Part shown: one piece after another, positions 4,538 through 50,500 of the stretch
Layout of the letters: each line of letters starts with the position of its first letter
Position numbering within the stretch: position 1 is the first letter of the stretch
DNA from: a virus
Taxonomy: Duplodnaviria > Heunggongvirae > Uroviricota > Caudoviricetes
Strand: one strand, 5' to 3'
Length of the DNA stretch: 64,000 nucleotides
IMG/VR virus record: IMGVR_UViG_3300028887_000068
Span: 1-64,000 of that record
Notes under the pieces: generated by a model
What the model was told of the DNA's origin: nothing
The model's database searches: none
Seen by the model: only the letters and a program-made list of their open reading frames with translations
Program-made: the position numbers and the translations under genes

Positions 4538-4544
4538 GTAATAA

Positions 4545-4576: not shown

Positions 4577-4594
4577 CGAATTTTGTATGACGAA

Positions 4595-4607: not shown

Positions 4608-4638
4608 TATGTTCATATTAACCATAAGGAGGTACAAA

Positions 4639-5240: not shown

Positions 5241-5246
5241 AGAATA

Positions 5247-5275
5247 AGCCCAGTGACAGTGGGCTTTCTTTTTTC
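5247..5275 (+). terminator. rho-independent terminator
   Basis: agcccagtgacagtgggct hairpin followed by ttcttttttc. Confidence 0.7.
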
Positions 5276-5288
5276 TAGTATATTATAA
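5276..5288 (+). promoter_or_regulatory. promoter-like motif AGTATATTATAA
   Basis: GTATATTA at 5278-5285, 52 nt upstream of the TTG start at 5330. Confidence 0.45.
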
Positions 5289-5329
5289 AAAAGAAAAATA
5301 AACCTTAAAAACCAAGGAGAACAAGACTG

Positions 5330-15136: not shown

Positions 15137-15153
15137 TAAACCTCCCTGTTAGT

Positions 15154-18301: not shown

Positions 18302-18302
18302 T

Positions 18303-18758
18303 TTAACCTCCTGACAAGTAAACATCTTCTGGAAGAACTAATGGAACGATTTCCGGATCTCTCGCTGCATGAGCCCAGTGTATCTTCATATCTCCCATCT
18401 CTTGCTCCAATGCTCCAATCATGGTTGTGATAACCATGTTTAGGGTTTCATTGATACTTTTTTGGTCATTGATATTGTTGGCTACTATGCGCGGTTTGTA
18501 GTGTCTCACTCCGTCTACATAGATAAGCCTTCGTATAGAGATTACACAATCGTCTTCGCTCCTATACAAGTCCAAAGGATTTCCAAAGAGAAGCGTAACG
18601 TCATAGCTACAATGTCTGTTAACAGCTATATTATTACGGAAATTATTGGCGCATTGCCGAATGGGATGAGAGTCAGTTTCACATGCAAATGCTGCCATCG
18701 TCTTGGCTATAATATAGGCATGATGCATGACTGTTACAGCTATTTTAAAGCTCATCAT
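18303..18758 (-). CDS. paralog family A member 11 (divergent)
   Basis: C-terminal MIGALEQEM. The N-terminus is divergent and Cys/His-rich. Confidence 0.45.
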   Translation of the reverse strand: MMSFKIAVTVMHHAYIIAKTMAAFACETDSHPIRQCANNFRNNIAVNRHCSYDVTLLFGNPLDLYRSEDDCVISIRRLIYVDGVRHYKPRIVANNINDQKSINETLNMVITTMIGALEQEMGDMKIHWAHAARDPEIVPLVLPEDVYLSGG

Positions 18759-19155
18759 AAACCTCGATAATTTGGGGTGTGAGACCTCGTTTTCTGTACT
18801 CTAGGGCTACATCTTCTAATAGCCCTATGCACAGCTTGGCTAGATCTGTCTTTTTCATGACAGTGATTCTACGTTCAACGTAGTCATCGTGTTCCGTACT
18901 GTGATTGAGCTTCATAAACTGGCCACATGCAACAAGGGCAGTATAAGTGCTGATCTTATGATCATCAATCATGAAAGCATAGTAATCCATGAAGAATGGC
19001 TCTTCCGGAAGAACTACGAAGTTAATGCAGCGTGTACTTGCCAAGACTTCGAGTCTGATGCTCTCTTCAGGGGCAGTAGTCATACCCATAGCAAAGAGAG
19101 CTTTACATGCCTCCAGCTTTCCTTTAAGATATTCAGTCATAATCCTCCTTTGCAT
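18745..19155 (-). CDS. paralog family A member 12
   Basis: N-motif ALFAMGMTT. C-motif LCIGLLEDVALEY. Confidence 0.55.
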   Translation of the reverse strand: MQRRIMTEYLKGKLEACKALFAMGMTTAPEESIRLEVLASTRCINFVVLPEEPFFMDYYAFMIDDHKISTYTALVACGQFMKLNHSTEHDDYVERRITVMKKTDLAKLCIGLLEDVALEYRKRGLTPQIIEVYDEL

Positions 19156-19548
19156 CTAAGATATAATATCCCAAAGAAAACCGTTCTTTCTGTCCAACTT
19201 TGCTATGCCTTCCATTAGCCCAATGATAAGCATCACTATCCTTCTCTTATCGAGATGCTCAAGCTGCTGATAGCGTATGTCCTGTGTTCCTTGTATAAAA
19301 TTGTACATCTGATAAAGAACAGTGCCGTGGTCAAGCTGTGGCATACACGCTTTTGCCTCAATTTGCGTTGCTGTGCAAAAGGCAAGATTGGATACAGTTA
19401 TTACTGTATTGTTAAAGATGTAGTCACGGTCTACGAAAAAGGTAAGATGACCGCTGCTTTTTAATCCCATAGACTGAGCAGCGCTCTCTATGTATTGATA
19501 ATTCGCTACACAAAGAGCACCATTTCTCATAGCATCTTCGGTATTCAA
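19156..19548 (-). CDS. paralog family A member 13
   Basis: N-motif AAQSMGLKS. C-motif LIIGLMEGIAKL. Confidence 0.55.
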   Translation of the reverse strand: MNTEDAMRNGALCVANYQYIESAAQSMGLKSSGHLTFFVDRDYIFNNTVITVSNLAFCTATQIEAKACMPQLDHGTVLYQMYNFIQGTQDIRYQQLEHLDKRRIVMLIIGLMEGIAKLDRKNGFLWDIIS

Positions 19549-19988
19549 AACGGTATATCCCCCTCTGGAATATTCCCATTCCAGTTAATGTCTTTTAGGC
19601 GGTCTATCTCAGCTAATCTTTCCATGAAGCCAAACAGTCGCTTGCTTATTTTCTCTATCGTAAGTTCAGAGTAATGAGCATTGAGAAAGTCGCCTTGGCC
19701 CTTTTCCAGATGAAAAAGCAGACTCGGGTATCTTTCATCAATGTTATCTGCAAAGTCAGTATACGAATTGAGGTATGGGCCACTTATAAGAAACGCAGGA
19801 TTCCTCAGTTCCAGATATCCCCTAGTAGGCAAAAAGGGAATGATTTGTCCCATTACGTTAGTAAGACCCATAGACTCGCATAGACGAATACAGACTCTAG
19901 ACATATCTTCGGCGTCACAGAAATCAGTCTCCTCTGCGAGTGGCTCATGCACATATTCGTACTGCGTTAAGTATGTGGTGAAATCCAT
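19545..19988 (-). CDS. paralog family A member 14
   Basis: N-motif LCESMGLTN. C-motif RLFGFMERLAEI. Confidence 0.55.
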   Translation of the reverse strand: MDFTTYLTQYEYVHEPLAEETDFCDAEDMSRVCIRLCESMGLTNVMGQIIPFLPTRGYLELRNPAFLISGPYLNSYTDFADNIDERYPSLLFHLEKGQGDFLNAHYSELTIEKISKRLFGFMERLAEIDRLKDINWNGNIPEGDIPF

Positions 19989-20383
19989 AGGTTCCTGTCT
20001 ATCTTGTTGAATTCGTGTTTAAAGACTTCTTCTAACGCGCCAAAGGCTGTAGCTAGAAGTTCGCTCGGTTCTACGGATTCCATTTCGAAGCAGTCATAGT
20101 CGTCGATTTGAGATGCTGTTTCATACCTAGGTCTATACAAGCCGAGACGTACCTCTGGCTGTGTCGTTTCTACTTTCTTGAAGTTTAGTTCTGTAAAAGA
20201 CCAGAGATAGTCCTGATCCTCTATGAAGACAATATCACCGGGAAAGGTAGTATTGAGCTGTATGCCGTATGATATCGCCACCTCAGAATATTCGTCTTCG
20301 TCTCTGTTAAAGGTTCTCTCGTCAAAGAGAAGTGATTTAACGGTTGAATCAAAATTGTAAAATTCCATCAGAGAATTCTCCAT
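19967..20383 (-). CDS. paralog family A member 15
   Basis: N-motif AISYGIQL. C-motif TAFGALEEVFKH. Confidence 0.55.
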   Translation of the reverse strand: MENSLMEFYNFDSTVKSLLFDERTFNRDEDEYSEVAISYGIQLNTTFPGDIVFIEDQDYLWSFTELNFKKVETTQPEVRLGLYRPRYETASQIDDYDCFEMESVEPSELLATAFGALEEVFKHEFNKIDRNLWISPHT

Positions 20384-20730
20384 TGTGAGCGTATGTTTCT
20401 CACGGTTTCCATCATGCCATATACATACCAGAGCATATCGTCAATGTTATCTGGAACGCAATAGTCCGGTATCTTCAATCCAAACACAGATCTCCATATG
20501 GAATTGGTTTGAAGAATGAACGAGTCATCAGACCAATCGGTAAATGTAAAGTCAAAGAAGCTTCCATCATTGAGAGTATTGGGGTCTTCGCCACTAGCGC
20601 GAAGACCGCTTTCATCGTCTCCGAAGAATGTAAGATCGCTCCAACTATCGTCGTCATATCCAATACTTCTTAGGAAGGCATAGCAAACGCCCCTTTCATT
20701 TCTAGTCATTACTCCTCCAGTTAGTTGCAA
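20368..20730 (-). CDS. paralog family A member 16 (start may be the ATG about 21 nt downstream)
   Basis: N-motif FLRSIGYDD. C-motif YVYGMMETVRNI. Confidence 0.5.
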   Translation of the reverse strand: MQLTGGVMTRNERGVCYAFLRSIGYDDDSWSDLTFFGDDESGLRASGEDPNTLNDGSFFDFTFTDWSDDSFILQTNSIWRSVFGLKIPDYCVPDNIDDMLWYVYGMMETVRNIRSQWRIL

Positions 20731-21028
20731 CAGCTTTCACAACTTCTGCAATACCAAACAGGTATGCTATTAAAACATCATTACTAATGGCGCAGCAGAA
20801 AGCTTGAGCTGTCCTTTTATCTCTTATAACATGCGAACTTGTAACAATGCGCAAACCACCCAAGCCGTCAGACAGGCCGAAGTCTTCATTTATCACGTCA
20901 CGACGCTCGTCCATAAAGAACATATAGTCGTCTGTGATGCCATTATCTTCAAATCCCATTATCTTTAGTATTTCATACGGTCTGAAGTCAGTTGACTTCT
21001 CTTGTACGGACTCTCTGCTAAAACTCAT
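20702..21028 (-). CDS. paralog family A member 17
   Basis: Internal ATG at 21028 forms an ATGA overlap with the upstream stop and follows GAGGGT. N-motif ILKIMGFED. C-motif YLFGIAEVVKAV. The longer ORF-track start at 21127 would overlap the neighbour by about 100 nt. Confidence 0.45.
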   Translation of the reverse strand: MSFSRESVQEKSTDFRPYEILKIMGFEDNGITDDYMFFMDERRDVINEDFGLSDGLGGLRIVTSSHVIRDKRTAQAFCCAISNDVLIAYLFGIAEVVKAVATNWRSND

Positions 21029-21384
21029 TCTACCCTCACGGGAAGATAAACTCCACCAAAAGTCCTTAACAACTCGAAGTATCTTTTCAGTCTCTTTTCG
21101 AGAATTCCGAACATAGCCGGTGTACATTCTTCTATACGCTTCTTTCGTATAATGCTTCTCGGAGAGTCATCTACACAAGTATACTTCTCCGGAAGAACAT
21201 TGACGTTGTAATAGAAGTGCATTGTCTTGCAGTATATATCCATGCCAACATTAAGTCGTAATTCTGCATTAAACTCGTCACGAAGACTTCCAAATGCAGC
21301 GAACGAGTTATCAAATCTGACTAGTTCAAAGCCAAGTGACAACAAGGCTCTGAACCCAAATTTTTCTGCGTCGCTTCCTGTCAA
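21025..21384 (-). CDS. paralog family A member 18
   Basis: N-motif LLSLGFEL. C-motif AMFGILEKRLKR. Confidence 0.55.
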   Translation of the reverse strand: MTGSDAEKFGFRALLSLGFELVRFDNSFAAFGSLRDEFNAELRLNVGMDIYCKTMHFYYNVNVLPEKYTCVDDSPRSIIRKKRIEECTPAMFGILEKRLKRYFELLRTFGGVYLPVRVE

Positions 21385-21716
21385 GGATTCCTCCTTATTC
21401 GTTCTTCCTGTCTCTTTTCTATCACTCCATAGATAGCAATAGCCAGAGATCGGAGTTCTTCCGTTCCTTTTATCTTGTAATACGGCTTATACTTTTCTTG
21501 TTTTCCAAATTCTTCATTGAGCCATACAGTATGCTTAAATAAATCTTTGCTAATGCCAGTAAAGTAATAATTAAATTCATACATGCCGTCTACTGGCGGA
21601 CGAAACTGTAACGCATCACCCGCAAAGAGAAGGCCACTACCTGCTACTGGCACAAAACCCATAGCCGCAAAGATCTTTATTATGTCTGCTGGCCCATGAG
21701 CGCTCATTATAATCAT
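21381..21716 (-). CDS. paralog family A member 19
   Basis: N-motif FAAMGFVP. C-motif AIYGVIEKRQEE. Confidence 0.55.
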   Translation of the reverse strand: MIIMSAHGPADIIKIFAAMGFVPVAGSGLLFAGDALQFRPPVDGMYEFNYYFTGISKDLFKHTVWLNEEFGKQEKYKPYYKIKGTEELRSLAIAIYGVIEKRQEERIRRNP

Positions 21717-22024
21717 AGGTCTCTCCTGAACGGCTTGTTCATTCGCACTTCGAGCAAGCTGAAGAAGATAAAGACTATCTCTTCTTCATTAGTTCCTACG
21801 AACTGTGTTACGTTGCCATGAAGCTTAAAGGCTTCCTTAGCGCCTTCGCCAAAATCCGGTCTATACTTTCCGGACTGATTGCTGAATATAAACTCCACTA
21901 GACGGTCACTGGAGTATTCTTCAAGCACTTTCAAGCGAAGATCATCGTTTCCTGGTGTCATAGCTGTCATGTATCCCATCGAGTGGAACATAGAAACAAA
22001 GTCAGCTCCATTTATTCGTCCCAT
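21713..22024 (-). CDS. paralog family A member 20
   Basis: N-motif FHSMGYMT. C-motif IFFSLLEVRMNK. Confidence 0.5.
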   Translation of the reverse strand: MGRINGADFVSMFHSMGYMTAMTPGNDDLRLKVLEEYSSDRLVEFIFSNQSGKYRPDFGEGAKEAFKLHGNVTQFVGTNEEEIVFIFFSLLEVRMNKPFRRDL

Positions 22025-22329
22025 TTCTTACTCCAGTCATAGCCCATATAGTATTGTGTAGCACTTATCTTTTCCAGATGACCAAAAACAATCTTCAGAA
22101 AATCCTCTTTTAATATAAAAGAATCTGTGTCGATGTCATGATCACCTCTTCTAAAAGTAAATGTGCCGGGTGAACATAAGGCAACTTGTGTACATGATGT
22201 TATACGTATACTATTTGTATATGCGAAGTGAAAGTTTATTCTTGGTATAATAAGCGGCGTGTTTATGAAGGCAGCGTCGGCTCCAACTTCATAGCCGAGA
22301 GATTTAAGCGTCCATCGATAAAAGAGCAT
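22012..22329 (-). CDS. paralog family A member 21
   Basis: N-motif LKSLGYEV. C-motif IVFGHLEKISAT. Confidence 0.55.
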   Translation of the reverse strand: MLFYRWTLKSLGYEVGADAAFINTPLIIPRINFHFAYTNSIRITSCTQVALCSPGTFTFRRGDHDIDTDSFILKEDFLKIVFGHLEKISATQYYMGYDWSKKWDE

Positions 22330-22645
22330 AAGAGTCCTTCTCTATTAGAATTTGTACGGCACGTTCCATAGTGCCAAATAAATTCGCAACAAAATTCTCT
22401 CTAGGATCATATGAATACAGCTCTCGTTTGAGTTCGCCATTGTACCTATAGAGCATTCCTACATCATTATCAGAAAAGTCGAACCTCATTTCCACACTTC
22501 CAAATTCAAACTTAAATAGGAAGAAGTATCTTTTGAAAGCCGAGGTCAGACCAAAAGAAGCTGCGCAAAGAGCTATGCCCTCGGCGGACATTAGCTCTAC
22601 TCCACGCCTCTCTCTGTCTGGTCTTAAGTTAGGCATAAACGTCAT
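22304..22645 (-). CDS. paralog family A member 22
   Basis: N-motif CAASFGLTS. C-motif NLFGTMERAVQI. Confidence 0.55.
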   Translation of the reverse strand: MTFMPNLRPDRERRGVELMSAEGIALCAASFGLTSAFKRYFFLFKFEFGSVEMRFDFSDNDVGMLYRYNGELKRELYSYDPRENFVANLFGTMERAVQILIEKDSYALLSMDA

Positions 22646-22992
22646 ATAATATAATCCTTTTTGTACTTATAAGCTGTTTCTAAACATCCGATAGCCAAAG
22701 TCGAGAAGTCGCACTGTACAAACCCTCCGATCGGATAGGACGAGTGCGCATAGTCACCGCACTTTGGTTTACAACCATATCTTCCATAAACATGAATCCT
22801 ATACAACGGATACGGATTTCTTCCCGTTGTGTTAAGCCTGATTAGAGTATCACCAAGACTCCTTCTAAAGTCTAAACTGTATGTTCTACAGCTGTAATCG
22901 CCTTGTCTTGTGTTGACGAAACACAAAGAATCCAAAACCTTGGCTGCTTCGGTTATAGTTATCAAAGGTGAGTATCTTGATTCTTCTGCCAT
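22642..22992 (-). CDS. hypothetical protein
   Basis: 116-aa ORF. Stop-start overlap with the downstream gene. Cys-rich. Confidence 0.5.
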   Translation of the reverse strand: MAEESRYSPLITITEAAKVLDSLCFVNTRQGDYSCRTYSLDFRRSLGDTLIRLNTTGRNPYPLYRIHVYGRYGCKPKCGDYAHSSYPIGGFVQCDFSTLAIGCLETAYKYKKDYII

Positions 22993-23066
22993 ACATTTCT
23001 CCTTGTATACTCTTTATTATATACTATGAAAAAATAAAGCTCATGGACGAATCCATGAGCAATTCT

Positions 23067-23495
23067 TTAGTCGTAGCGTCCTGCGCTAATGAGACGACTT
23101 CCTAGCTGTGCTATCTTTGAAACATATTCCTGATATTCTTTTGCACCGCCGCTGAAGTTATACCTGTCTATTCTTACTTCAATGGAGTCATAGAAAGAGA
23201 TAAGGAGATATAGATCATGCGCATACTGGGTGATAGTTATACGACCAATGTCATCATCTTCCTTCTGGTAATTGATGCATAAGGTTGTAGGCATTTCCTT
23301 ACTGAAATTGGCATGAAGGAAATACGTATTATTGAAGATATTAGGTTTTCCGAAGAAATCCATCAGGTCTTCTATCTTGAGACTTTTTAAGTAGTCTTCA
23401 TTCTTCATTGTCATCTTCAATGCTTCTTCGTATCTAGCATGACTACAGTCTTTGTTAAATTCGTCAAGTCCAGTTAGGGTTTCCTCTAAGAGCAT
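23067..23495 (-). CDS. hypothetical protein
   Basis: 142-aa ORF. Confidence 0.5.
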   Translation of the reverse strand: MLLEETLTGLDEFNKDCSHARYEEALKMTMKNEDYLKSLKIEDLMDFFGKPNIFNNTYFLHANFSKEMPTTLCINYQKEDDDIGRITITQYAHDLYLLISFYDSIEVRIDRYNFSGGAKEYQEYVSKIAQLGSRLISAGRYD

Positions 23496-23544
23496 TTTTC
23501 TCCTTTTTATTTTTTATTTTTAATAATACTTCAGAAAAAAGTCG

Positions 23545-23904
23545 TTAGAGCCATATAAGAATGGTTCGATCTCGTAGTTCTACATTATTGAATGGAAATT
23601 TCATTTCTTTTGTAAAAATGCGCATTATAGAATTTAAGAAATTACTTGTGTCTGTATAATCCTTAAAGGACGTTCCTAGCAAGATATGAATCTCCGTTCT
23701 TAAGGGAGATTTGGAAAACTCGTATAAGAACTTGTGGAACATTAATTGAACACAGCCGTTAGCTTGTATGACTTCGCAAGCTTTATTCAAGTATCTTTTC
23801 TTAAATTCTTCTATAGTCGTAACAGCGTCTTTGTTATGAATAAGCGTCAACTGTTCGAATGTCATCATTTGTCTTTTCTCCGTTTGGATTTGAATTGAAG
23901 CCAC
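23545..23904 (-). CDS. hypothetical protein
   Basis: 119-aa ORF. Confidence 0.5.
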   Translation of the reverse strand: MASIQIQTEKRQMMTFEQLTLIHNKDAVTTIEEFKKRYLNKACEVIQANGCVQLMFHKFLYEFSKSPLRTEIHILLGTSFKDYTDTSNFLNSIMRIFTKEMKFPFNNVELRDRTILIWL

Positions 23905-24193: not shown

Positions 24194-24838
24194 TTATGCC
24201 TCGTCGCGGAACTTAGCGAATTCGTCATCGATGGAAGCATCCTTTGTTTCAACTTCATCGATATCGTCTTCGCGAAGAATTTCCTGAACGTGTTGTTTAG
24301 CCTTAACGCTATGTTCATATCCGGCGATTTCTTCTTCAATAGCCTTGAGCGTAGCATTGTCAGACGGGCTGATGAGCTGTTCAAGAGTCTTATTAGCCTT
24401 GAGGTTATCAATGATGAACTTGAGCTGTTCTGTACGGCTTTCGAGGCTGTTCTTCTTTTCATTCATGATACGAAGATTGCGCTCGGCTTCGGTCTTGAAT
24501 CCAAGAGCTGTATTATACTGTTCTTCGTATGTCTTGACCTGGCTTTCCCAGTCTTTGTACTTCTTGAAGAACTTCTTGGACTTGTCTTCATCTTCCTTCA
24601 AGAGAGCCTTAGCCTTTTCCTTGTACATGTCGCGATTCTTCTTTGCGTCTTTGAGCTTTTCATCAACTTCATCGAAATTAGCGAAGATTCTTTCAGAATC
24701 CTTCTTATACTTGTCGAACTGGTTCTGATATTCTTGCTTGGAATACTTGAGACGCTTTTCCAAGTCGATCGTTTCTTCAAGTTTGGAAGAGAAGTGGAAC
24801 ACGTTAATCTTTATCCATTTGATGATTGCTTTAAGCAT
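24194..24838 (-). CDS. coiled-coil protein
   Basis: 214 aa, K/E-rich heptads throughout. Confidence 0.55.
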   Translation of the reverse strand: MLKAIIKWIKINVFHFSSKLEETIDLEKRLKYSKQEYQNQFDKYKKDSERIFANFDEVDEKLKDAKKNRDMYKEKAKALLKEDEDKSKKFFKKYKDWESQVKTYEEQYNTALGFKTEAERNLRIMNEKKNSLESRTEQLKFIIDNLKANKTLEQLISPSDNATLKAIEEEIAGYEHSVKAKQHVQEILREDDIDEVETKDASIDDEFAKFRDEA

Positions 24839-32146: not shown

Positions 32147-32641
32147 ATGACTGATAAGTCTATCAAGCCTGTTAAGGCCGAAGCCCAGAAGCCCAAGAAG
32201 ATGAATTTTGTAAAGAAGGATGGCAAAAAGCCGTTCTTCAAGAAGAACCGTAAGCCTCTTAAGACAGTTGACATTGATGCCATTCAGAAGAAGGCTGAAG
32301 AACTCTTCAGGAGCAACGATCGTTTCAATGACTTCGAACTGAAGTTTGAAAATACGTTCTATACTGATAAGGCTACTGGCGAAAAGAAGACTCTTGATAC
32401 CATTGCCATGAAGGTCATTAATAAGCAGACCGAAGAAATGAAGGATACAGTTGAACGTATCTTCAAGATCTACAAACATGGCGATAACGATGAAGTGATG
32501 AAGAAGGCGATGAAGTGGCTCAGTGCGCAGCCTTCCATCATTCGTCGTATGTTTAGCGACTATGCCGCAGTGGATGCTAGCAAGGAAAAGAACAACAAGC
32601 TTTTCAAGGCTACGTTCCACGCTCTTGGCAAGCGCTTCTAG
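32147..32641 (+). CDS. basic lysine-rich protein
   Basis: 164 aa. AAGGAG lies 8 nt upstream of the ATG. The N-terminal 40 aa are K/P-rich. Confidence 0.65.
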   Translation: MTDKSIKPVKAEAQKPKKMNFVKKDGKKPFFKKNRKPLKTVDIDAIQKKAEELFRSNDRFNDFELKFENTFYTDKATGEKKTLDTIAMKVINKQTEEMKDTVERIFKIYKHGDNDEVMKKAMKWLSAQPSIIRRMFSDYAAVDASKEKNNKLFKATFHALGKRF

Positions 32642-32670
32642 AATGTCCCGAAAAGGATAGTTGCAATGGT

Positions 32671-32702
32671 AACGGGTGGCGAAAGTCACCCGTTATTTTT
32701 TG
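32671..32702 (+). terminator. rho-independent terminator
   Basis: aacgggtggcgaaagtcacccgtt hairpin followed by attttttt. Confidence 0.75.
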
Positions 32703-32715
32703 TAAATTCTATGAT

Positions 32716-32730
32716 CCTGATAGTATATTA
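32716..32730 (+). promoter_or_regulatory. promoter-like motif CCTGATAGTATATTA
   Basis: GTATATTA at 32723-32730. The 13-mer cctgatagtatat recurs at 59973. Confidence 0.45.
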
Positions 32731-32734
32731 TTTT

Positions 32735-33275
32735 GTGCTGTAGTAGAAATATTATAGCCTTATTCAAGATACATTGGAAATACTTTGGTATATATGGTAG
32801 TCTTGATAGCCTGAGCGGTATGCCGTTAGAGTGTACGGTATAGAAGTGGCTGAAACAACCGCAAGATGGCGATAAGATAGCGACGGTCTTCGTGGCTCAA
32901 GGGTTTAGCATCCTGAGAGCGTCCCGAACTTTCTAGCTAGGAAAGAGGGAATTCGTCGTAGCCGCATTTCTCAATGTCTGAAGAGAGTGCGGTAAGGATG
33001 TCGACAACATCTGAAGGACTAGTAATAGTTCATGCCCCCATATGCGCAGATGGGTAAGACACAAAGTTTAAGCAGGGTGACTCGGATAGCCTGTGGAGAC
33101 GATGTGCCGAATAGCCACGTCATGAACGAACGAGCGTTCATGGTAGAAGACCGGAAGAGAGCTTAAGATCTCTTCTGTAAAAGCTTCCTTGGAATTTGAT
33201 CTGACCAGCATGGCCTGCGTCAGTATTCCTTGGAAGTGATGGAAGCAGCTGAATTTCAGCTGCTTCTTTTTTTGT
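32735..33275 (+). ncRNA. candidate large structured ncRNA (about 540 nt), unclassified
   Basis: About 500 nt with no credible ORF on either strand. GC content is visibly above that of the flanking DNA. It is bounded by the promoter-like motif (32723) and a strong terminator (33241-33274). It contains many local inverted repeats, for example catgaacgaacgagcgttcatg and uaugccgu...acgguaua. Confidence 0.35.
33241..33274 (+). terminator. rho-independent terminator
   Basis: ggaagcagctgaatttcagctgcttc hairpin followed by ttttttttg. Confidence 0.75.
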
Positions 33276-33288
33276 TTGTATATTATAC
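33276..33288 (+). promoter_or_regulatory. promoter-like motif TTGTATATTATAC
   Basis: GTATATTA at 33278-33285, 39 nt upstream of the ATG at 33317. Confidence 0.5.
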
Positions 33289-33316
33289 CATAGCAACAAT
33301 TCTTAAAGGAGAAAAC

Positions 33317-33811
33317 ATGCCAAGACAATTCATTCCGTATGGTCGCATTGCAGAATACATTGACAACTTCTGTAGTACCAGAAAAGCCGAGCATAGAGCT
33401 TATGCGAATACTGACTACAATAGCTATATTACCGGCGAGTCACATGAGGCAAAGATGCCATATGCTACTGTGACTTTCCATATCGATTACTACAAGCACT
33501 ATCCTACAGAGATATACGCCAAGAGACCGAATGACCCCCTCAATCAAGTAAAGGCCATCAACTCCGTGCGTATCTCCATTCAAGCTAGAAGAGATTGCAA
33601 CGAAGAATACGAAGAGGACTTCTATGGAGCTTCTATTCCAGTTCTTGACGCTGTTCTTCCATTCTTTATTGATACTCTTGACGAGTACAAGAGGACGAGA
33701 GAAAAGGAACAGAAAGCCAAGGAAAGAGCAGAGAAGGCTGAACGACGCAAGCAGTACTTGAAGCTGAAGGAAGAGTTTGAACCGGATAGCAAGAAGTCTA
33801 AGAGAAAATAA
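33317..33811 (+). CDS. hypothetical protein
   Basis: AAAGGAGAAAAC ATG at 33317. The ORF-track start at 33230 lacks an RBS and overlaps the terminator. Basic KE-rich C-terminus. Confidence 0.6.
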   Translation: MPRQFIPYGRIAEYIDNFCSTRKAEHRAYANTDYNSYITGESHEAKMPYATVTFHIDYYKHYPTEIYAKRPNDPLNQVKAINSVRISIQARRDCNEEYEEDFYGASIPVLDAVLPFFIDTLDEYKRTREKEQKAKERAEKAERRKQYLKLKEEFEPDSKKSKRK

Positions 33812-33844: not shown

Positions 33845-36127
33845 TTAAGTGTTATGGCCTTTGAGACGCCATGTATATTCAGCCTTCTTACCCGGGTTCC
33901 ATCCTTCGAGACTACCAACGAGATAGCCAGTGATACGACGGATACGGTCGATCTCAGTGCTTCCGCAGAACGGACACTTGTCCTCGTTGAAGATACCTGT
34001 CTTATGGCAGTTACGGCAGTAGTCAACATCAATGTTAACAGCTCCATAGCCGACATTGTTGTCGTGCATACAGCGGACGATCTTTTCATAGGCTTCAAGG
34101 TTCTTGGTAGCATCACCGTCCATGTGGACATAGAGGATATGACCAGCATTGCACAATGCGTGGTACGGAGCTTCGACCTGAATCTTGTGGAAAGCCGAGC
34201 AAGGATATTCAACAGGAACATGGCAAGAGTTCGTGTAGAAGCCTTTATCTGTGATACCCGGAATGTCACCAAACTTAGCTCTATCAAGCTTTGTAAAGCG
34301 TCCAGAAAGTCCTTCAGCCGGAGTAGCGAGAAGAGTGAAGTTGAGCTTATACTGTTCCGTCATCTTGTCGCAATAGTCACGCATGTATTTGACGATTTCG
34401 AGACCCTTCTTCTGTGCTTCTTCAGATTCGCCATGATGGAATCCGGTCATGACCTTAAGGGTTTCTGCCAGACCGATGAAGCCGATAGAGAGGGAACCAT
34501 GCTTCAATACAGATTCGAGCGTGTCGTTCTTGCTAAGCTTTTCAGAATCTAACCATACATGTTGTCCCATGAGGAATTTGAAATTCTTAACACGCTGTTT
34601 GCACTGGAGTTGATAGCGTTCCAAGAGCTGATCCTTGACAAGTTCCATGTACTTATCGAGATCGGCGTAGAATCCTTCCCAGTTACCCTTATTAAGAAGA
34701 GCCAGACGAGGGAGGTTGATAGTTGTGAAGGAGAGATTACCACGTCTCCAAGCCTGTGGTCTGACGGAGTTGATATCTGCCATAACGCGCGTCCGACATC
34801 CCATTGTGGAAATCATCGTTTCCGGATGACCAGGCACGTAATACTGCATATTGAACGGAGAATCCTGGAATTCCCAGTTCGGGAAGAACCTCTTAGCGGA
34901 TACCTTAATGGCAAGCTTAAAAAGATCATAGTTAGGATCGCCTTCCTTGTAGTTTACACCATCCATCACACGGAAGATCTGAATCGGGAAGATAGGGGTT
35001 TCACCATGACCAAGACCTGCGTCTGTCACTTCAAGCATACAACGGATAACAAGACGAGCTTCCGTGGAGGTTTCCGTACCATAGTTGATAGAGGAGAACG
35101 GAACCTGAGCACCTGCACGGCTGTGCATAGTGTTGAGGTTGAACAGAAGTGCTTCCATTGCCTGATAGGTCTTTTCTTTGATAGTCTTCAAACCAAGCTT
35201 AAAGACACGCTTTGCTTCACATTCTTCAAAGCCAGCTGCCATGAAACGATCGACGAACTTCTTTTCATCGTCCATACCGAATTCATAGTCAGTCTTGAAG
35301 ATAGACTTGGATGTAGCCTTGATAGCAGCTTCGTCCATATCAGTAAGGAAGAGAGCGTCTTCGACACTGTGCTTGAGAGCCTTATTGAACGAGAGCTTGA
35401 CGTACTTTGCGAGAGCCAAGTCAAAGTTCGGGATAGACTGACCGCCGTGCTGGTCGTTCTGGTTAGACTGAATAAGGATAGCAGTCTGAGCAGCAGCTGT
35501 ACGGATAGACTGAGGAGGACGGACAAAGCCGTGACCAGTATTGAAACCTGTTTCGAGCATCTGCTGAAGGTCGATCTGTGTACAGGTGGTTGTGATGCCG
35601 TAAAAGTCCATGTCATGAATATGGATGAATCCTTCACGGTGAGCATTGGTAGAACGTTCTGCGATGATGCGATCAAGGAAGAATTCCTTAGCTGCTTCAG
35701 AACCATAGCGAAGCATCTTGCCCATAGCAGATTCGCCATCAATGTTGCCATTTTCGCGCTTGATAGCAGATTCGCTAAGATCGGAGAATGTGATTTCAGC
35801 GAGCTTAGAGTAAAGCGGCATCTTACGATTGCGAGCGCGGTTACGACGGTTACGGAAGTTACGATAAGCTTCGAATTCTTCGGTGAATCCCTTGTCCTTA
35901 ATCGCACAAATCACGATGGACTGCATTTCATCGATCTGGAGTCTTTCCGACTGAAGGTCGTGAATGTCATGGATTACTTCGTCAACAACAATCTGTACAT
36001 TCTGCGGGTCAACCGTCGTGTTATGACGTGCTGCCACTTCTGCGAATGACTTGTATACTGCGTTGAATACCTTGCGTTCCTCGAACGGAACTACTCTGCC
36101 GTCTCTTTTTTCGATCTCAGTGATCAT
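33845..36127 (-). CDS. nrdD: anaerobic ribonucleoside-triphosphate reductase (class III)
   Basis: N-terminal ATP-cone (MITEIEKRDGRVVPFEERKV). C-terminal Zn-ribbon CRNCHKTG...CPFCG and glycyl-radical motif RRITGYL. 760 aa. Confidence 0.85.
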   Translation of the reverse strand: MITEIEKRDGRVVPFEERKVFNAVYKSFAEVAARHNTTVDPQNVQIVVDEVIHDIHDLQSERLQIDEMQSIVICAIKDKGFTEEFEAYRNFRNRRNRARNRKMPLYSKLAEITFSDLSESAIKRENGNIDGESAMGKMLRYGSEAAKEFFLDRIIAERSTNAHREGFIHIHDMDFYGITTTCTQIDLQQMLETGFNTGHGFVRPPQSIRTAAAQTAILIQSNQNDQHGGQSIPNFDLALAKYVKLSFNKALKHSVEDALFLTDMDEAAIKATSKSIFKTDYEFGMDDEKKFVDRFMAAGFEECEAKRVFKLGLKTIKEKTYQAMEALLFNLNTMHSRAGAQVPFSSINYGTETSTEARLVIRCMLEVTDAGLGHGETPIFPIQIFRVMDGVNYKEGDPNYDLFKLAIKVSAKRFFPNWEFQDSPFNMQYYVPGHPETMISTMGCRTRVMADINSVRPQAWRRGNLSFTTINLPRLALLNKGNWEGFYADLDKYMELVKDQLLERYQLQCKQRVKNFKFLMGQHVWLDSEKLSKNDTLESVLKHGSLSIGFIGLAETLKVMTGFHHGESEEAQKKGLEIVKYMRDYCDKMTEQYKLNFTLLATPAEGLSGRFTKLDRAKFGDIPGITDKGFYTNSCHVPVEYPCSAFHKIQVEAPYHALCNAGHILYVHMDGDATKNLEAYEKIVRCMHDNNVGYGAVNIDVDYCRNCHKTGIFNEDKCPFCGSTEIDRIRRITGYLVGSLEGWNPGKKAEYTWRLKGHNT

Positions 36128-42812: not shown

Positions 42813-44777
42813 TTAGAACGGGAGATCGATGTCCGCAACCGGGGTGAACCCAGTAGCATCAAGATAGACGTCATCAAAGAATGAGACGCACTCGTCAGCG
42901 TTCTTGATTTCTTTCATATCCTTTACATCGGACTCATTGAAGATCTTGTATCGTTCTTCGAAGTTCGGTGTGATCTTCTTAGATGCACTGACAATGGCGT
43001 ACTTCTTACCAAACTTTTCAGAAGCATCTTTGAACTCTTCCGGAGTACATCTTGTCTTGTCGAACATGATTTCTGAAATATTCTTCAAGAGCTTGACGTT
43101 ATCGGCGAGTATCTTTCTCGTAGCCACAATACATTCCTTAATCATCGTATTGATTTCTTCGGATGTATCAGACATCTTATTATATTCGTTAGTATTTGGG
43201 CCAACCACAGCCTTGATCTTATCCGTGAATGCGAACTTACGAACATAGGCTGCTGCCATTGCGGTAGCCTTAGCCAAGTCTGAGCTACAACCCACAGTAC
43301 GGAAATCCTTACCGAAGACAAGCTCTTCAGCCACCATGCCAGCAAGAGCGACACAGATGTAGGACTTAAGAGTGATGGCGGTATGGCGGATCAAGTGCGT
43401 GGTAATGAAGCCAGCTGCGACTCTGGAGTCCGCAACAATGCTTACCATCTTGCGAGGAATAGCACCAAAGGATTCCGCATAGACGATAGCATGCCCAGCT
43501 TCATGAACAGATGTGCAACGTCTTTCGTTGACATGAGCCTTGATACGCTTAGCACTTTCGTCATACGGGCCGATGCAGCTAACCTTGATACCGTTAGCTT
43601 CAAGCTCCATAGTATCATCGTTGTACTTCACAGTGATCTTCTTATCAGCTTCTTTCTGTTTGAACACAAGGAACGGAACAGCCGAAGCCAGAACACCGTT
43701 GATAGTGGAAATAAGCGGACGAACACCTTGGGTTGGGAAGACACCATTGCGGTATACCATCTGCTTCACAGTCTTATCGAACGTGACTTCGATGCCTACA
43801 GCTTCCTTAGTGTGGTCTGCAAGAATCTGGAGATTCTGGTCAATGATCGTCTCAAAGCTCTTCTTCGAGAGTGAATGGAAGATCACAAAATTGTTTCCAA
43901 GACGGGCAATCTGTTCAGGGAAGAACCAACCAGTGAGACCAGCCTTCACATCAAAGACATTCACATCCTTAGAGGATTCGTAGACTTCATCTGCATCAAG
44001 TTCGCAAGATGCTACATCATTAGCATCAGAGAATACGCAGTCAAGGTTACAAGAAGTGACGAAGAGGAAACGGGTAAAGTCAGAATAGATCGGCTTATTA
44101 TCATAGTGATCATAGAGATCCTTGATAAAGTCGAAGGCGGCTTTGCCACAGAGTTTCTTGATTTCAGCAAGCGGTTTCTTTTTCTTGCAGAGAACGAAGA
44201 GACGGTAAGCCATCGTTCCAAAGAAAGCCGGACATTCGGCTCTACGTTTCATGACACCGTCTTCTGTTTTAGTATCGTTAATCATGTAGGCGATATTGCG
44301 CATCGTTCTTTCGAGTTCTTCCTTAGACAGATTCATTGGGATCTTGCCATCAGAAAGAATATCCCAGAATTCCTGTGTGTTGGAATTATTGGTTCTAGTA
44401 CCAAGCGCACCCTTACAGGAGAAGTTCTGGAATTCATCGATGAAAATGATACCCTTATCAAGACCGTCTTCTTCCTTCATACGGTAAGCAACCTGTGCCG
44501 GAGAGACAGAATTGTTATTAGCGCATGTCATCATCTGAGATACTTCGTTTAAGCCGAGTTCATCACAGAAGAGACGGAACATCTGCGTCTTACCGACACC
44601 AGTCATACCGACAAGATTGATAACCAGAGGCTTGGTCAGTAGCTCTGGAGCACAGTACCAAGGAGCCAGTAATTGAGCGAACTGGTCGATCTGCTTGTCA
44701 CAGTCGATGAGCTTCGTCTTAATTTTCTTAGCGGCTTCCATCAGTTCGTCATACTTTTTCATAGAGTCTTTATTCAT
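42813..44777 (-). CDS. FtsH-like AAA+ ATPase / HEXXH zinc metalloprotease (no TM anchor)
   Basis: Walker A GMTGVGKT and Walker B IIFIDEF. C-terminal HEAGHAIV is the FtsH HEAGHA motif, with ...MVAEELVFG...SSDLAKATAMA resembling FtsH GGRVAEEL.FG...SNDIERAT. Confidence 0.75.
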   Translation of the reverse strand: MNKDSMKKYDELMEAAKKIKTKLIDCDKQIDQFAQLLAPWYCAPELLTKPLVINLVGMTGVGKTQMFRLFCDELGLNEVSQMMTCANNNSVSPAQVAYRMKEEDGLDKGIIFIDEFQNFSCKGALGTRTNNSNTQEFWDILSDGKIPMNLSKEELERTMRNIAYMINDTKTEDGVMKRRAECPAFFGTMAYRLFVLCKKKKPLAEIKKLCGKAAFDFIKDLYDHYDNKPIYSDFTRFLFVTSCNLDCVFSDANDVASCELDADEVYESSKDVNVFDVKAGLTGWFFPEQIARLGNNFVIFHSLSKKSFETIIDQNLQILADHTKEAVGIEVTFDKTVKQMVYRNGVFPTQGVRPLISTINGVLASAVPFLVFKQKEADKKITVKYNDDTMELEANGIKVSCIGPYDESAKRIKAHVNERRCTSVHEAGHAIVYAESFGAIPRKMVSIVADSRVAAGFITTHLIRHTAITLKSYICVALAGMVAEELVFGKDFRTVGCSSDLAKATAMAAAYVRKFAFTDKIKAVVGPNTNEYNKMSDTSEEINTMIKECIVATRKILADNVKLLKNISEIMFDKTRCTPEEFKDASEKFGKKYAIVSASKKITPNFEERYKIFNESDVKDMKEIKNADECVSFFDDVYLDATGFTPVADIDLPF

Positions 44778-44812: not shown

Positions 44813-45274
44813 TTAGAGACCTGCATTAAGCGGACGTACTCCCATCTTTTTGTTACACCGCTTGCCGTAAGGTGTCATGCACATGCAGTTAGCCTTATTT
44901 ATAAACGGCTTCATAACCTTCTTCAGATGGAGTCTTTCTTCCGTATCAGGGCAATACTGTGTCTCGCCGTTCTCATCCTTGTAAGTACGAGCTGGCATGA
45001 TCCAATAATCCTTATTGTTTCTCTCAAGGAAGTAAGTCCCCCTGATAGTGTTAATAAGATAGTAGCCGCCTTCGTCGCCTTGTTCTATGGTTATCTGTTG
45101 GCTGTACTGTTGTCCGTTGCCAAACAGTGCAAAGTAAGTGTCCGTATAGTGAATGGCAAGAGAATCTCCAACTCTGAAGAAGTTGGAGAGTTCTGCGCTC
45201 ACTTGGTCGAATGGCCCACGACGGACGTTTGTCATTCTAGCCGAGTACGTCATAATTGCCTCACGGGTTAACAA
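44813..45274 (-). CDS. hypothetical protein
   Basis: 153 aa. It sits between the patatin and FtsH-like genes. Cys-rich C-terminus. Confidence 0.5.
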   Translation of the reverse strand: MLTREAIMTYSARMTNVRRGPFDQVSAELSNFFRVGDSLAIHYTDTYFALFGNGQQYSQQITIEQGDEGGYYLINTIRGTYFLERNNKDYWIMPARTYKDENGETQYCPDTEERLHLKKVMKPFINKANCMCMTPYGKRCNKKMGVRPLNAGL

Positions 45275-46124
45275 ACTTTAAGAGCTTTTCTCTATCTTCA
45301 TCGTACTGCTTATCCCAGATTTCGATGATAGACTCGATACAGCTTACGTCATCCATATCGAACGAGTTATGAACAACCGGAGCCACATTGAAGAAATTCT
45401 TTTCTCCCATCACAGCCTTGCATCTGAACGCAGCAGCCTTAGAAGAACGGGCTACCCAGTGCTTAAGGATATACTTAGCCCATCCAAGCATGGTCTGATT
45501 ACCCTTAATGTTAAGCGGAGGAGTAGTCATACCCGTTTCGAGGTTAAGGATACGGATATTTCTTTGTCCCTTAGCATACATGCCAGCCATGAGGTCATCC
45601 GGACAAGAGTTAGCCCATAGACCGCCATCACAGAAGCTTCTACCAAGGGTATCGACAATGACATCGAAGTATGTAGGAGCAGCGCAAGATGTAAGGATAG
45701 CGAACCACTTGTCCTCGGCATCATGGTTATCCCAGATCTTCTCATCGGAAGATCCGTTCATGTAAACGCAAGGAATGAAAGTAGGTTTACTCCACTCGCT
45801 AACCTTTCCCTTAAACTTGTCTTGAAGAATCTTCTTCAAGTTAGAATTGTCAAAAGGCGGACAAGTGGGAAGTAAACGCTTATACCAAGGATACTTGGTA
45901 AATATCTTCTTGCCTTCTTCTATATAGAGATTTTCCATCTCTACAGCTGAAATCCCTTCTGCCATTCCACCGGCCAGAATTGATCCAGTTGATGTCCCGG
46001 ATTGTGCTATAAGTCTCTCATGCAGAGGACACTTCAAATCGCCTTCCAATCTGGCGAGATAATGAGCCGGGCCTACTCCGAGGATTCCGCCTCCGGATAC
46101 TGATAAACAAAGACCTGAATTCAT
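45261..46124 (-). CDS. patatin-like phospholipase
   Basis: Oxyanion-hole motif VSGGGILGVG near the N-terminus and serine-lipase motif GTSTG (GxSxG). Confidence 0.75.
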   Translation of the reverse strand: MNSGLCLSVSGGGILGVGPAHYLARLEGDLKCPLHERLIAQSGTSTGSILAGGMAEGISAVEMENLYIEEGKKIFTKYPWYKRLLPTCPPFDNSNLKKILQDKFKGKVSEWSKPTFIPCVYMNGSSDEKIWDNHDAEDKWFAILTSCAAPTYFDVIVDTLGRSFCDGGLWANSCPDDLMAGMYAKGQRNIRILNLETGMTTPPLNIKGNQTMLGWAKYILKHWVARSSKAAAFRCKAVMGEKNFFNVAPVVHNSFDMDDVSCIESIIEIWDKQYDEDREKLLKFVNP

Positions 46125-47527: not shown

Positions 47528-50500
47528 ATGAGTCGCTTTATATTAAAGCCCTTGAAGTGGATCTGGACGGACGAAGTTGGTACTCCGTATGACCCTCCGG
47601 TTAATGGCAATACCGCGAGAATCTTGGATCCTGCTCTCCCGCGTGTCGGAGAAATCTTTATGGACAAGCAGGGTGTTCTTTATACGCATGTTATCAAAAA
47701 CCTAAACCACGAATATGTTAAATGTGGTGGTTCCGGTAATGGTGCTTCCTTGGACGGAGAAGTACTGAAGGCAAGAACACCTCTCAACCGCAATGGACAG
47801 ATTAAGAGCGATTCCACTATCGTCGATGTTACTTCCCTTGATAACGTGTATGTAGCGGCTCTTATCTCCGAAAGTGGTACGAAGAAGGTTCTTCTCGGCG
47901 ACTTCAATGATGTTCTTAATAATCGTTCTGATGTCTTCATTGAAGCATGTACGGTTGAAAGTGATGCAACACGTGTCTTCATTACGAGATCTGCCTTTGG
48001 TATTGTTATTCTCGTTTTCGGTGCTACAAGTGGACTGAAGCTTTATGCGCTTAATTCTGCGGCTGGTGCTACTGGCGAGCGTTATATCGAGAAGAGCATC
48101 GATCTTCCGAGCGGTGTCACATTTACTAGTATTCTTCAGATCTCTGAAGAAGGTCATTTCCTTGCTGCATGTGGTCTCACGAGTCCGTATGTATTCTTGG
48201 TTGATCTTAGCAACCCCGACAATATCTTTACCGAGACTCGTATTACTGGTAATGTAACCTTCGCAAAGACAATCTCTAAAGTGAAGCAAAGCTTCTGTCC
48301 TTTTGTTAAGGAGAATGAAAAGGTCTTCTATTACGCAAAGGATGCGAACGGCTCACTGCTGAAGATTGTTTATAGCAACGGCACACTTGTCTCTCTGGTT
48401 CCAGTTAGTAATATCGACTTTGATGACGGTTTTGAAGTCGGAACCAAGTTCTTTGTCCATAAGACAGCTAGTAATGTAGCTCTGTTTGATGGCAATGAAA
48501 GTAAAGCTCTTGGTTTTAATGTTAACCTTGGAACCGTCATTGATGATATTGACTATCAGGCTTCTAACAAGCGTGATGGCGAAATAGAAAACAATGCTTC
48601 GTTTACTGCTATCAGAAGTATTGGCACCGCTAATACCGACTGTGTGTTTGCTTCTTTCTTCAATGATCTTAGCAACGTACCGGGAAACGAAGACAAAAAT
48701 GCTTATATTGAGCATGTTGCTAGTTTGACCGGGCTTACCAAAGATATCATCTATCTTGGTCATGGTTTCGTAGCATCTGTCAATGACGCTAAGGCTTATT
48801 CTTTCAATATCGGCTTCATTGAGGCATTCAAGCACATTGAAGCAGCAGAAGTCTCTAGCCGTTTTACGAGTGTTGTATCTACGGATAAAGCGCGCAAAAC
48901 GGTAATGAATCCATCTGCCAATGATGCTGGAGACGGAAAATTCATTGATAACAAGTCTACTTTCAGTAACACGGAAGTGGGAGAAGAAGTTCGTGCTAAC
49001 TCTGCTAAGTCTTACCTGCATAGCAATGAAAATGGCACGTCGTCTATTGAATCTATCGTAGACTCTTCGTCGTCGAGTCCTTATGCCAAGCATGAAATCA
49101 AAAGGGGCGAGAGCAGCAAAGTCACGTCCGTAGTAGACACGAACAGTGCATCCATCCGCGAAGGTACTGGAAACAGCAAGTACTTTGAGGTGAAGAGCGA
49201 TGCTAATGGCCAGAATGCTAAGATGGTAAACGGCAGTACCGAAATTCATCTTAGAGAAGAAAGACAAGACTCTTCTATTATCGAAGCTGTCGGCAATGGT
49301 TGGGATACCGTGTTTGGTTCTGTTGCTACTACAGAGGAAGCTAAGAGCTATCTTGGTTCCGGTGCTGATTCTGGTACGCAGTCTTACACGTATGATGACA
49401 CGAGTTTCTCGTATAAGCATAGAAGCGATCCAGTTTACGTAGAACAAACAGCTGTGGTAAGCAGCAATAAGCGAAAAGCCGGGGCTGTTTATAACGCTGT
49501 CGGATCTGGAAATCCGAATAACGAAAGTGTGGTTTCTATCGATGCTAGCGGTGGTACTGGCAGTAATTTCTATGCAAAGAATACTGTCAGGACTAAAGTT
49601 GCCAACGGCTACGAGAGTATCATTACTAATGAAGCCACCGGAACGGGCAATACCGCTGCAACAAAGCATTCTCTTATTAATACCTCGAACGTAGAGGTAT
49701 CCACTGTAAAAGAAGAAGTTAAGGCGACAGAATCCGTTGTAGAAACACGTCATGTCTACACCTATAGTGGAAATACCAGAATACCAGTAGCAAGAATGAG
49801 AAGCACCAATAATCTTGGTGTAATGGAGATTATTCCTAACGAGACTGGCACTTCTGCTGATAACTTCGATAAGAGCATTCTCCAAGTCGAATCTGGCAAG
49901 AGCTTGTTCTGGCAGAGATGCAGAAATACCGACGGCGATGCTTCGTTATCCTTTAAGTCTGATGTCAACGCTACGGAAAATGGCGGATTTGTTGATACCT
50001 CTCTTAGAGAAGGCAACACAGACTCTCATGCTGTGGATATGCGCATTGACTTTACTGGAAATGAGTATGACACAGAAAGATCCCGCTTCAGAACAAGAAC
50101 CATCGGTAATACTAGCGGTGCTTACGTCAATATCGAGACGAGAAACAAAACCGATAGTCTGCATGATTACGCCTATGCGAATATCGAGCTCGAAGCATAT
50201 GGCACAACAAGTCCTCTTGGAACTATCGGCTATACGAACATCGGAGCGGACAAGACAGTCATTCAGGACTCCAAGGATAGTTATGACTTCCGCACGGTTC
50301 TTTACAAGAAAGGATTGAATGCGGTAAATACGTCTTACTCCAGAAGCGGAACGCTCTTGATAGTGGAGAACAATGAAGAGTACTCTTCCGGTGAGACGAA
50401 TTACGATCCGTTAATCCTTACGAGACGCTTCCTTGATTCTGGATCTGCTAGTAATAGAACCTATAGAAACTACGACTTTGGTGTTGAAAGAAGACCAATG

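Follow-up and report, generated by a model that had tools for sequence, protein, structure and literature searches.

Bacterial and phage RNAs of more than about 400 nucleotides (nt) with a conserved structure are rare, and those with known functions are mostly ribozymes or large ribonucleoprotein scaffolds. For ROOL, GOLLD and OLE, the formation of unexpected multimeric assemblies has recently been shown. ROOL and GOLLD are often located near tRNA islands, and many GOLLD members exceed 800 nt. OLE, a chromosomal RNA of about 600 nt from anaerobic extremophilic Firmicutes, is linked to Oap protein genes and acts as a ribonucleoprotein scaffold with dedicated protein partners. ROOL and GOLLD, for which no function is known, are encoded by phages and prophages; ROOL was discovered in metagenomes from the rumen and frequently, though not obligatorily, has tRNA genes in its neighbourhood (PMC12286853). 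In phiKZ and other Pseudomonas phages, non-coding RNAs (ncRNAs) of 89-210 nt have been described, which are mostly derived from untranslated regions by attenuation or processing (PMC10914365). Here, we analyzed a locus of about 540 nt in positions 1 to 64,000 of the IMG/VR virus record IMGVR_UViG_3300028887_000068. This stretch of 64 kb, referred to as the window in the following, is part of an uncultured jumbo-type phage from gut or rumen. A sequence-only reading had proposed the locus as a candidate large structured ncRNA that had not been classified, and had pointed to ROOL and GOLLD as the RNAs it resembles.

The view of a large structured and unclassified ncRNA is supported by syntenic homologues, by covariation in a central core, by strand-specific G-U pairs and by the lack of a match in Rfam. 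Seven further distinct copies of the RNA were found at the same site next to nrdD, the gene for the anaerobic ribonucleotide reductase NrdD, and three strongly diverged subtypes of 504-608 nt can be distinguished, which are named here after the window and the contigs L001 and L104. We estimate the probability that the locus is a genuine, previously undescribed structured ncRNA gene at roughly 80%. According to the best reading, it would represent a new family of large, independently transcribed phage RNAs that act in trans. It is classed as new because the models of the known families, which are the decisive test for membership, fail to recognize it.

In the whole window, no match to Rfam 15 was obtained at the gathering score. 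A permissive search of positions 32500-33500 (E up to 10) returned only weak chance matches to two terminator hairpins, and in L001 and L104 (E up to 5) the RNA body was equally unmatched, with chance matches to terminator hairpins only. The covariance model of ROOL (RF03087), which represents a conserved core with multiple pseudoknots, matched neither the window at the gathering score nor any of the three subtypes at the permissive settings. The model of GOLLD (RF01998), which represents its conserved 3' region, was also unmatched, and the 504-608 nt of the RNAs described here stay below the length of many GOLLD members. HEARO/IscB omega-RNA (RF02033) gave no model match, and the neighbouring proteins have no match to a nuclease domain in Pfam; raiA (RF03072) and OLE (RF01071) were not matched in the window, L001 or L104. 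Group I and group II introns were rejected, as Rfam gave no match and the element lies between complete genes with NrdD intact. ARAGORN and Rfam likewise gave no match for tRNA, tmRNA, RNase P, 6S or SRP RNA. It is extremely improbable, in our view, that a divergent member of a known large phage RNA class (ROOL, GOLLD, HEARO/IscB omega-RNA, raiA or OLE) was missed by these models. The length of about 540 nt, the location in a phage and the origin from gut or rumen do resemble ROOL and GOLLD, but the RNA body remains unmatched in all three subtypes even under permissive settings, the 64 kb contain no tRNA gene according to ARAGORN and Rfam, and no IscB- or TnpB-like gene is adjacent. Thus, the resemblance to ROOL and GOLLD holds in kind, for size, phage origin and source, but does not extend to membership.

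Like ROOL and GOLLD, the RNA is a stand-alone, phage-encoded element of several hundred nucleotides with many helices and no assigned function, and like GOLLD it has one part that is conserved and another that is far less so. In contrast to both, it has no match to their sequence or structure models and, in the same phage context, no tRNA gene in the window. It is carried by a jumbo phage that encodes a multisubunit RNA polymerase itself, and its family comprises eight distinct sequences. With the phiKZ ncRNAs it shares the origin from a jumbo phage that encodes its own RNA polymerases. It differs from them in being longer, at about 540 nt, in having a promoter and a terminator of its own and in a core structure backed by covariation. 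OLE is a large structured RNA as well, and its scaffold role offers a possible functional analogy; unlike OLE, the RNA described here is encoded by a phage and has neither a model match nor a linked partner gene.

Positions 32642-33316, which separate the upstream gene with its stop codon at 32641 from the downstream gene with its ATG at 33317, form the largest gap without an open reading frame (ORF) in the 64 kb, as had been stated from the sequence alone. In a greedy ORF map the largest gap measures 540 nt as compared to 319 nt for the second largest. Stop-codon recoding occurs in some gut phages. In this gap, TAA, TAG and TGA stops are intermixed in all six frames; therefore, reassignment of a single stop codon yields no ORF, and a hidden ORF or an alternative genetic code was ruled out. 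The sequence signals proposed for the two ends of the transcription unit are present as well (Table 1). A terminator separates the transcript of the upstream gene from the RNA gene and is followed by a promoter-like region containing the recurrent motif AGTATATTAT; transcription would start at about positions 32735-32740. With at most one mismatch, ATAGTATATWAT is present at four sites in the window, where 0.76 are expected. A unit of a T-run followed by GTATATWAW is found at six sites, all after terminators (1491, 5278, 32723, 33278 and 42126 on the plus strand and 23024 on the minus strand). About 35-40 nt past the motif, a ribosome-binding site and an ATG are present at five of them, but not at 32723, the site preceding the RNA. 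The motif is likewise located 5' of the RNA in L001, L097, L094, L092 and L104. At the 3' end, the strong intrinsic terminator of the window copy is kept in L094, L095 and L096; the other two subtypes have different terminator hairpins.

Early genes of jumbo phages that encode their own polymerases are preceded by a highly conserved AT-rich motif of about 10 nt, which is centred near position -10 and is read by the virion RNA polymerase (PMC7598289). The GTATATWAW motif of the window fits this description, but could equally be a -10 element of the host sigma-70 type. The recurrent unit looks like a promoter of the phage itself, possibly one of the early class used by the virion polymerase. The RNA of the window and L104 subtypes is located directly 5' of a gene for a 164-amino-acid (aa) protein in the same orientation, as would be expected for a cis-acting leader or regulator of this gene (5' untranslated region, attenuator or riboswitch-like element). 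However, the strong terminator and then a further copy of the promoter motif (33278), which serves this gene, lie in between, so that the RNA is not its leader. Furthermore, in the L001 subtype only the RNA separates the upstream gene from the convergent nrdD, whose 3' end it abuts, and a downstream gene in the same orientation is absent. A leader, or the related alternative of a micropeptide gene discussed below, is highly improbable.

The plus strand of the RNA gene has a predicted minimum free energy (MFE) of -187.7 kcal/mol, compared to -155.8 +/- 5.7 kcal/mol for shuffled sequences (z = -5.6), and the z-scores for L001 and L104 are -4.0 and -5.6, respectively. The three hairpins quoted in the sequence-only reading were all recovered (32819-26/32835-42, 33121-28/33135-42 and around 33157-33177). 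The GC content of the RNA is 45.6% (48.8% in the core), which corresponds to the 80th percentile of segments of the same size; it is 43.3% in the window, 43% in the flanking genes and 25-40% in other intergenic regions. Thus, the claimed GC enrichment stands in comparison to other intergenic regions but is only modest relative to the flanking genes.

Contigs encoding NrdD and the upstream lysine-rich 164-aa protein as anchors were fetched as relatives. Used singly as anchors in IMG/VR, the flanking proteins gave no matches, while the NrdD anchor succeeded. The syntenic site was found in a small clade of phages from a few animal-associated metagenomes. The window subtype includes the window copy (542 nt from motif to T-run), L094 (3589-4092, 504 nt), the fragment L096 and one copy split by an assembly break into L092 and L095 (557 nt with the 2-nt join counted). 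Over the parts that can be aligned, their identity to the window copy is about 93-97%. The L001 subtype consists of L001 (7273-7832, minus strand, 560 nt; L011 and L012 are identical) and L097 (3376-3924, 549 nt), with a mutual identity of 93%, and the L104 subtype of L104, L105 and L106 (7282-7889, minus strand, 608 nt). The subtypes can barely be aligned with each other, and MAFFT returned scattered short blocks. All three begin with the promoter motif and finish with a terminator; also common to them are the lack of a shared ORF, strong predicted folding and the location between the gene for the upstream lysine-rich protein and nrdD. NrdD of the L104 lineage belongs to the same 90%-identity cluster as NrdD of the window, while the RNA is of a different subtype. 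Since the two NrdD proteins share a cluster at 90% identity or more and the RNAs are barely alignable, the RNA diverges much faster than the neighbouring NrdD.

Two further observations concern this region. In L104, L105 and L106, nrdD (3501-6715) is split into an ORF of 482 aa, comprising the ATP-cone and the N-terminal part of NRDD, and a second ORF of 588 aa, in which a GIY-YIG homing-endonuclease domain is fused to the C-terminal NRDD part; mobile endonucleases target the region beside the RNA gene. The assembly of sample ERZ27257202 is interrupted within the RNA gene (end of L092 at 4885, start of L095 at 1; corresponding to about 33046-33048 in the window), which may be due to strain microdiversity in a fast-evolving region.

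A covariance model, R1, was built for the central 166 nt (32872-33037) from the three window-subtype copies only, with a structure drawn by hand from the folds. The window itself scores 199 bits at 32872-33037. In 253 kb of loci, R1 detected L097 (48 bits, E = 2.5e-10) and L001 (38 bits, E = 8e-8), both exactly syntenic, and the remaining matches were no better than E = 2.7; L104-L106 are matched with 37 bits (E = 3e-8). Four pattern scans of the IMG/VR viral contigs retrieved only the known L001 contig and 15 chance matches that were rejected by R1, and one pattern scan of the GTDB bacterial genomes retrieved no family members and three chance matches. Seven core sequences were then aligned by fitting them to the R1 model structure (alignment A12). 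Standard pairs occupy 96.3% of the pair cells; after a shift of the 3' partners by 1-3 columns, this share is 34-49%. Changes on both sides are present in 17 of the 43 pairs, the covariation score is 0.40 as compared to 0.04-0.06 for shifted partners, and none of 500 column shuffles reached the observed paired fraction or covariation score. The covariation analysis across homologous loci, suggested earlier as a check, thus found the core pairing kept. About 30 of the 243 cells, as counted from the pair table, are G-U pairs, two of which are invariant and form the outer pairs of helices H4 and H6. As conserved G-U pairs would be A-C mismatches on the opposite strand, it is the plus-strand RNA that is selected, and not a DNA cruciform or an antisense RNA. 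The MFE fold of L104, which is independent of the model, recovers H4, H5, H6 and H7.

Within the core, all cells of H4 are paired (100%); two adjacent pairs swap between G-C and A-U among the subtypes, and the closing G-U pair is invariant. The insert enclosed by H4 comprises 68 nt in the window and 41-43 nt in the other subtypes, and its hairpins at 32895-32920 and 32922-32950 are present in the window subtype only. In H5, both-sided changes affect five of the six pairs and give up to three pair types, and again 100% of the cells are paired. The H5 loop AAUGUCUGAAG is the same in the window and L104 despite wholly different stems; it reads AAUGCCGGAAG in L001 and AAGGUCUGAAG in L094. H6 is nearly invariant and the most conserved stretch of the family. 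All seven aligned copies keep its loop CGACA, to which L104 and L105 add one U. The closing pair of H6 is U-A, U-G or C-G, its outer G-U pair is invariant, and the sequences on either side of the loop read UA(A)GGAUG and CAUCUGA(A/C). Five of the six pairs of H7 change on both sides, and L092 has a swap from A-U to U-A within the window subtype. Further conserved elements are the junction CGYYGUAG that follows H4 and, in the 3' arm, the motif UAGAAGACC (33144-33152), which is present in the form UAGAAGRCY in all three subtypes. The conserved H5 and H6 loops, the junction and UAGAAGRCY are natural candidates for a binding or active site. The proposed family, located next to nrdD in jumbo phages, is thus characterized by a core with H4-H7, CGACA in H6, AAUGYCKGAAG in H5 and detection by R1, and by a locus with its own promoter motif, a terminator, no ORF and placement between the upstream gene and nrdD.

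The conserved AUG in H6 also opens a short ORF, with the predicted peptides MSTTSEGLVIV... in the window and MPTASDGEELN... in L001, as would be expected for a micropeptide gene. However, the similarity of the peptides stops after seven residues, differences fall on first codon positions and match the pairings of H6 and H7, and the changes within the window subtype are non-synonymous (T to A, G to E or D, V to D). An ORF of 79 aa on the RNA strand of L104 has no counterpart in the other subtypes. A role as a peptide is therefore considered unlikely from these comparisons.

Some relatives carry protein genes instead of the RNA at this site. L002 and L003, whose NrdD is 82% identical to that of the window, contain a cysteine-rich ORF of 255 aa (7518-8285, minus strand), L091 a zinc-finger-like ORF of 70 aa (1112-1324) and L093 two ORFs of 208 and 214 aa (1898-3200). 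No significant or informative Pfam match was obtained for any of these slot ORFs. The sequence-only reading had regarded an ordinary protein gene in homologous phages as a finding that would speak against an RNA. Such genes do exist in these relatives, but the RNA stands nonetheless, since it has been retained in other relatives along with compensatory changes. As closer relatives carry small protein genes here, the RNA is an accessory element in a variable slot with rapid turnover.

The variability of the slot would also fit an element that acts at the DNA level or is decaying, such as the remnant of a pseudogenised accessory gene, a recombination hotspot or a site of replication or packaging. 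The invasion of nrdD by a homing endonuclease in L104-L106, which marks the region as recombinationally active, and the assembly breaks inside the region in ERZ27257202 point in the same direction. We nevertheless regard this explanation as very unlikely. A tblastn search found no similarity to the proteins that fill the slot in relatives, so that a pseudogene of these proteins was rejected, and the three subtypes have retained both the compensatory changes and the strand-specific G-U pairs. Moreover, promoter and terminator are present at both ends in all subtypes, the length is maintained at 504-608 nt, and origin-type repeats or iterons are absent; in a blastn self-comparison only the terminator and one hairpin appeared.

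Patchy presence, interchange with small proteins and rapid divergence are the usual pattern of phage genes for host takeover and counter-defence. Because the slot turns over with small proteins and the RNA diverges faster than NrdD, we infer a dispensable accessory role in host takeover or counter-defence. As a structured ncRNA acting in trans, the RNA would be transcribed as its own unit, possibly early, from a promoter of the virion-polymerase type, and would function in the form of a folded particle. Contact with a partner would be made by the constant loops of H5 and H6, as the functional or binding site, and the fast-evolving 5' and 3' arms would serve as a scaffold that is free to diverge. 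As a specific function, a protein-binding decoy or scaffold is conceivable and is favoured here over other options, though only tentatively. It is rather unlikely that the RNA is the founding member of a new class of large 'ornate' phage RNAs comparable in function to ROOL and GOLLD, either an RNA-only higher-order assembly or a ribozyme made early by the phage polymerase, with the invariant H5 and H6 loops as active or assembly site; if this were true, the rapid diversification of the arms would stem from an arms race with the host. The findings suggest that RNA genes can be interchangeable with protein genes in the variable parts of phage genomes, in which functions in host takeover and anti-defence tend to be located. 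A new family would provide a fresh and compact test case in jumbo phages with their own transcription machinery, and its conserved core, with two conserved loops in about 110-170 nt, is of a size that is directly amenable to biochemistry and structure determination.

Several points weigh against the interpretation as a new structured RNA with a role of its own. The reverse strand also has a low predicted MFE (z = -4.2), and a sigma-70-like reading of the promoter TTGTAA-18-TATATT is possible. Only eight distinct sequences from three lineages make up this tiny family, which limits statistical power and generality. As these three deep lineages come from few metagenomes, the covariation reflects few independent events, and the core alignment A12 was fitted to the structure of the model. 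Furthermore, a model of the 5' arm (R2, 32732-32875, window subtype) misses the other subtypes even with filters off, and a model of the 3' arm (R3, 33038-33192, window subtype) also misses them. Within the window subtype 99-100% of the arm pairs are kept, yet they are almost invariant and hence little informative, so that the structure of about two thirds of the molecule depends mostly on energy prediction. The upstream gene also occurs in relatives without the RNA, and no partner protein is linked to the RNA. Any function proposed for the RNA is entirely putative, and confidence in each specific one is low.

Regarding the arms, they are probably structured and lineage-specific, with exact folds that are predicted. 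All 35 pairs of the 5' arm are kept within the window subtype, where the inner hairpin of H3 has three one-sided compatible changes; the 3' arm has one compensatory pair (columns 64 and 84 of alignment A13). In the L001 subtype, several compensatory pairs are found in the long H3 hairpin and in H7, and the 5' arms of L001 and the window share the motifs UUGAUAGCC and GAAA. When the MFE structure of a single sequence is taken as reference, 10-16 of 23-26 changed pairs per comparison are compatible or compensatory. The broken pairs cluster in rearranged hairpin tips and in long-range MFE pairs, the latter of which are probably wrong. The last hairpin 5' of the terminator varies in the manner of an RNA hairpin: L094 has a mini-hairpin with a UUCG loop in its place, and in L095 it is enlarged, with compensatory changes at its base. 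Model R3 matches the 3'-arm hairpin at 33155-33177 on both strands, due to the palindrome CUUAAG in its loop, which could in principle mediate RNA-RNA dimerisation. The same hairpin, or alternatively 33066-33073, may be the counterpart of the GGUUAAGAC element of the other subtypes. Two further candidate features were rejected. Long-range pairing of the H4 insert (GGUCUUC, GGUCU, AGCCU) with UAGAAGRCY seems compensatory on visual inspection, but 25-50% of shuffled inserts reach a duplex energy at least as good. The enrichment of the words UAGC and AUAGC is nominal only (p of about 1e-4 before correction for 256-1024 words) and was discounted because it is expected where stop codons are not selected against.

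Table 1. Positions of the RNA gene, its predicted parts and the adjacent elements in the 64-kb window.
Feature	Position	Strand	Remarks
Upstream gene	32147-32641		lysine-rich 164-aa protein
Terminator of upstream gene	32668-32697	+	13-bp stem, then T-run
Promoter-like region of RNA gene	32700-32731	+	TTGTAA-18-TATATT including recurrent motif AGTATATTAT (32722-32731)
Non-coding RNA	32732-33273	+	about 535-540 nt; promoter to terminator T-run; no ORF; folding; syntenic homologues
5' arm	32732-32871	+	subtype-specific; predicted folds
H1	32737-32758		5' arm; hairpin with GAAA loop
H2	32764-32806		5' arm
H3	32808-32851		5' arm; with inner 8-bp hairpin; small hairpin next (32860-32871)
Central core	32872-33037	+	common to the three subtypes; model R1 and pair counts
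H4	32880-32959	+	GCGACG (32880-32885)/CGUCGU (32954-32959), closing a variable multi-branch insert
H5	32961-32993	+	GCCGCA (32961-32966)/UGCGGU (32988-32993); loop motif AAUGUCUGAAG at 32973-32983
H6	32996-33012	+	GGAUGU (32996-33001)/ACAUCU (33007-33012); CGACA loop 33002-33006
H7	33016-33031	+	GGACUA (33016-33021)/UAGUUC (33026-33031); GUAA (GNRA) loop; longer in other subtypes
3' arm	33038-33240	+	subtype-specific apart from motif UAGAAGACC; predicted folds
3' arm hairpins	33037-33054, 33066-33100, 33101-33121, 33124-33139, 33155-33174		then variable last hairpin 33183-33236
Terminator of RNA gene	33241-33275	+	12-bp stem (33241-33267, 6 G-C pairs), then U-run (T-run in the DNA)
Promoter motif copy	33277-33287	+	TGTATATTATA; for downstream 164-aa gene
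Downstream gene	33317-33811	+	164-aa protein; same orientation as RNA

With respect to the phage, a 1547-aa protein of the window matches families of the beta subunit of phage multisubunit RNA polymerases (PHROG 14872, E = 6e-143), and several virion structural proteins are encoded in the 64 kb. Among 50,697 GenBank phage records, no DNA match was found for the window in either near or distant mode, and no protein match for the flanking genes and one large protein. The nrdD gene (33845-36127, minus strand) is intact and encodes 760 aa, in which the Pfam domain NRDD is matched from 1 to 560 of its 562 model positions. The closest cellular NrdD proteins have an identity of about 52%; a Firmicutes host is hinted at, because the named ones among them derive from metagenome-assembled genomes of Clostridia (Oscillospiraceae, Butyricicoccaceae and others). 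For the neighbouring and slot proteins, neither Pfam nor PHROG provided a functional clue.

Immediately 5' of the gene for the beta-like RNA polymerase subunit, a 1438-aa protein is encoded (47528-51844, plus strand), for which no Pfam, PHROG or GenBank-phage match was obtained; by its position, it could be a highly diverged polymerase subunit. The region 13310-23904 (minus strand) contains about 25 small ORFs of 100-170 aa in head-to-tail arrangement, many of which overlap by a few bases. Several adjacent pairs are weakly paralogous (22-34% identity, E from 1e-4 to 1e-13), which suggests tandem duplication, and the array resembles early genes. Finally, a membrane-related set is encoded at 46-1437 (plus strand), 24194-24838, 42813-44777 and 45261-46124 (all minus strand). 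It consists of an SPFH/flotillin-like protein, a PspA/IM30-like protein below the Pfam cut-off, an FtsH-like AAA+/M41 protease and a patatin-like phospholipase. This set is unusual for a phage and may serve membrane remodelling in infection.

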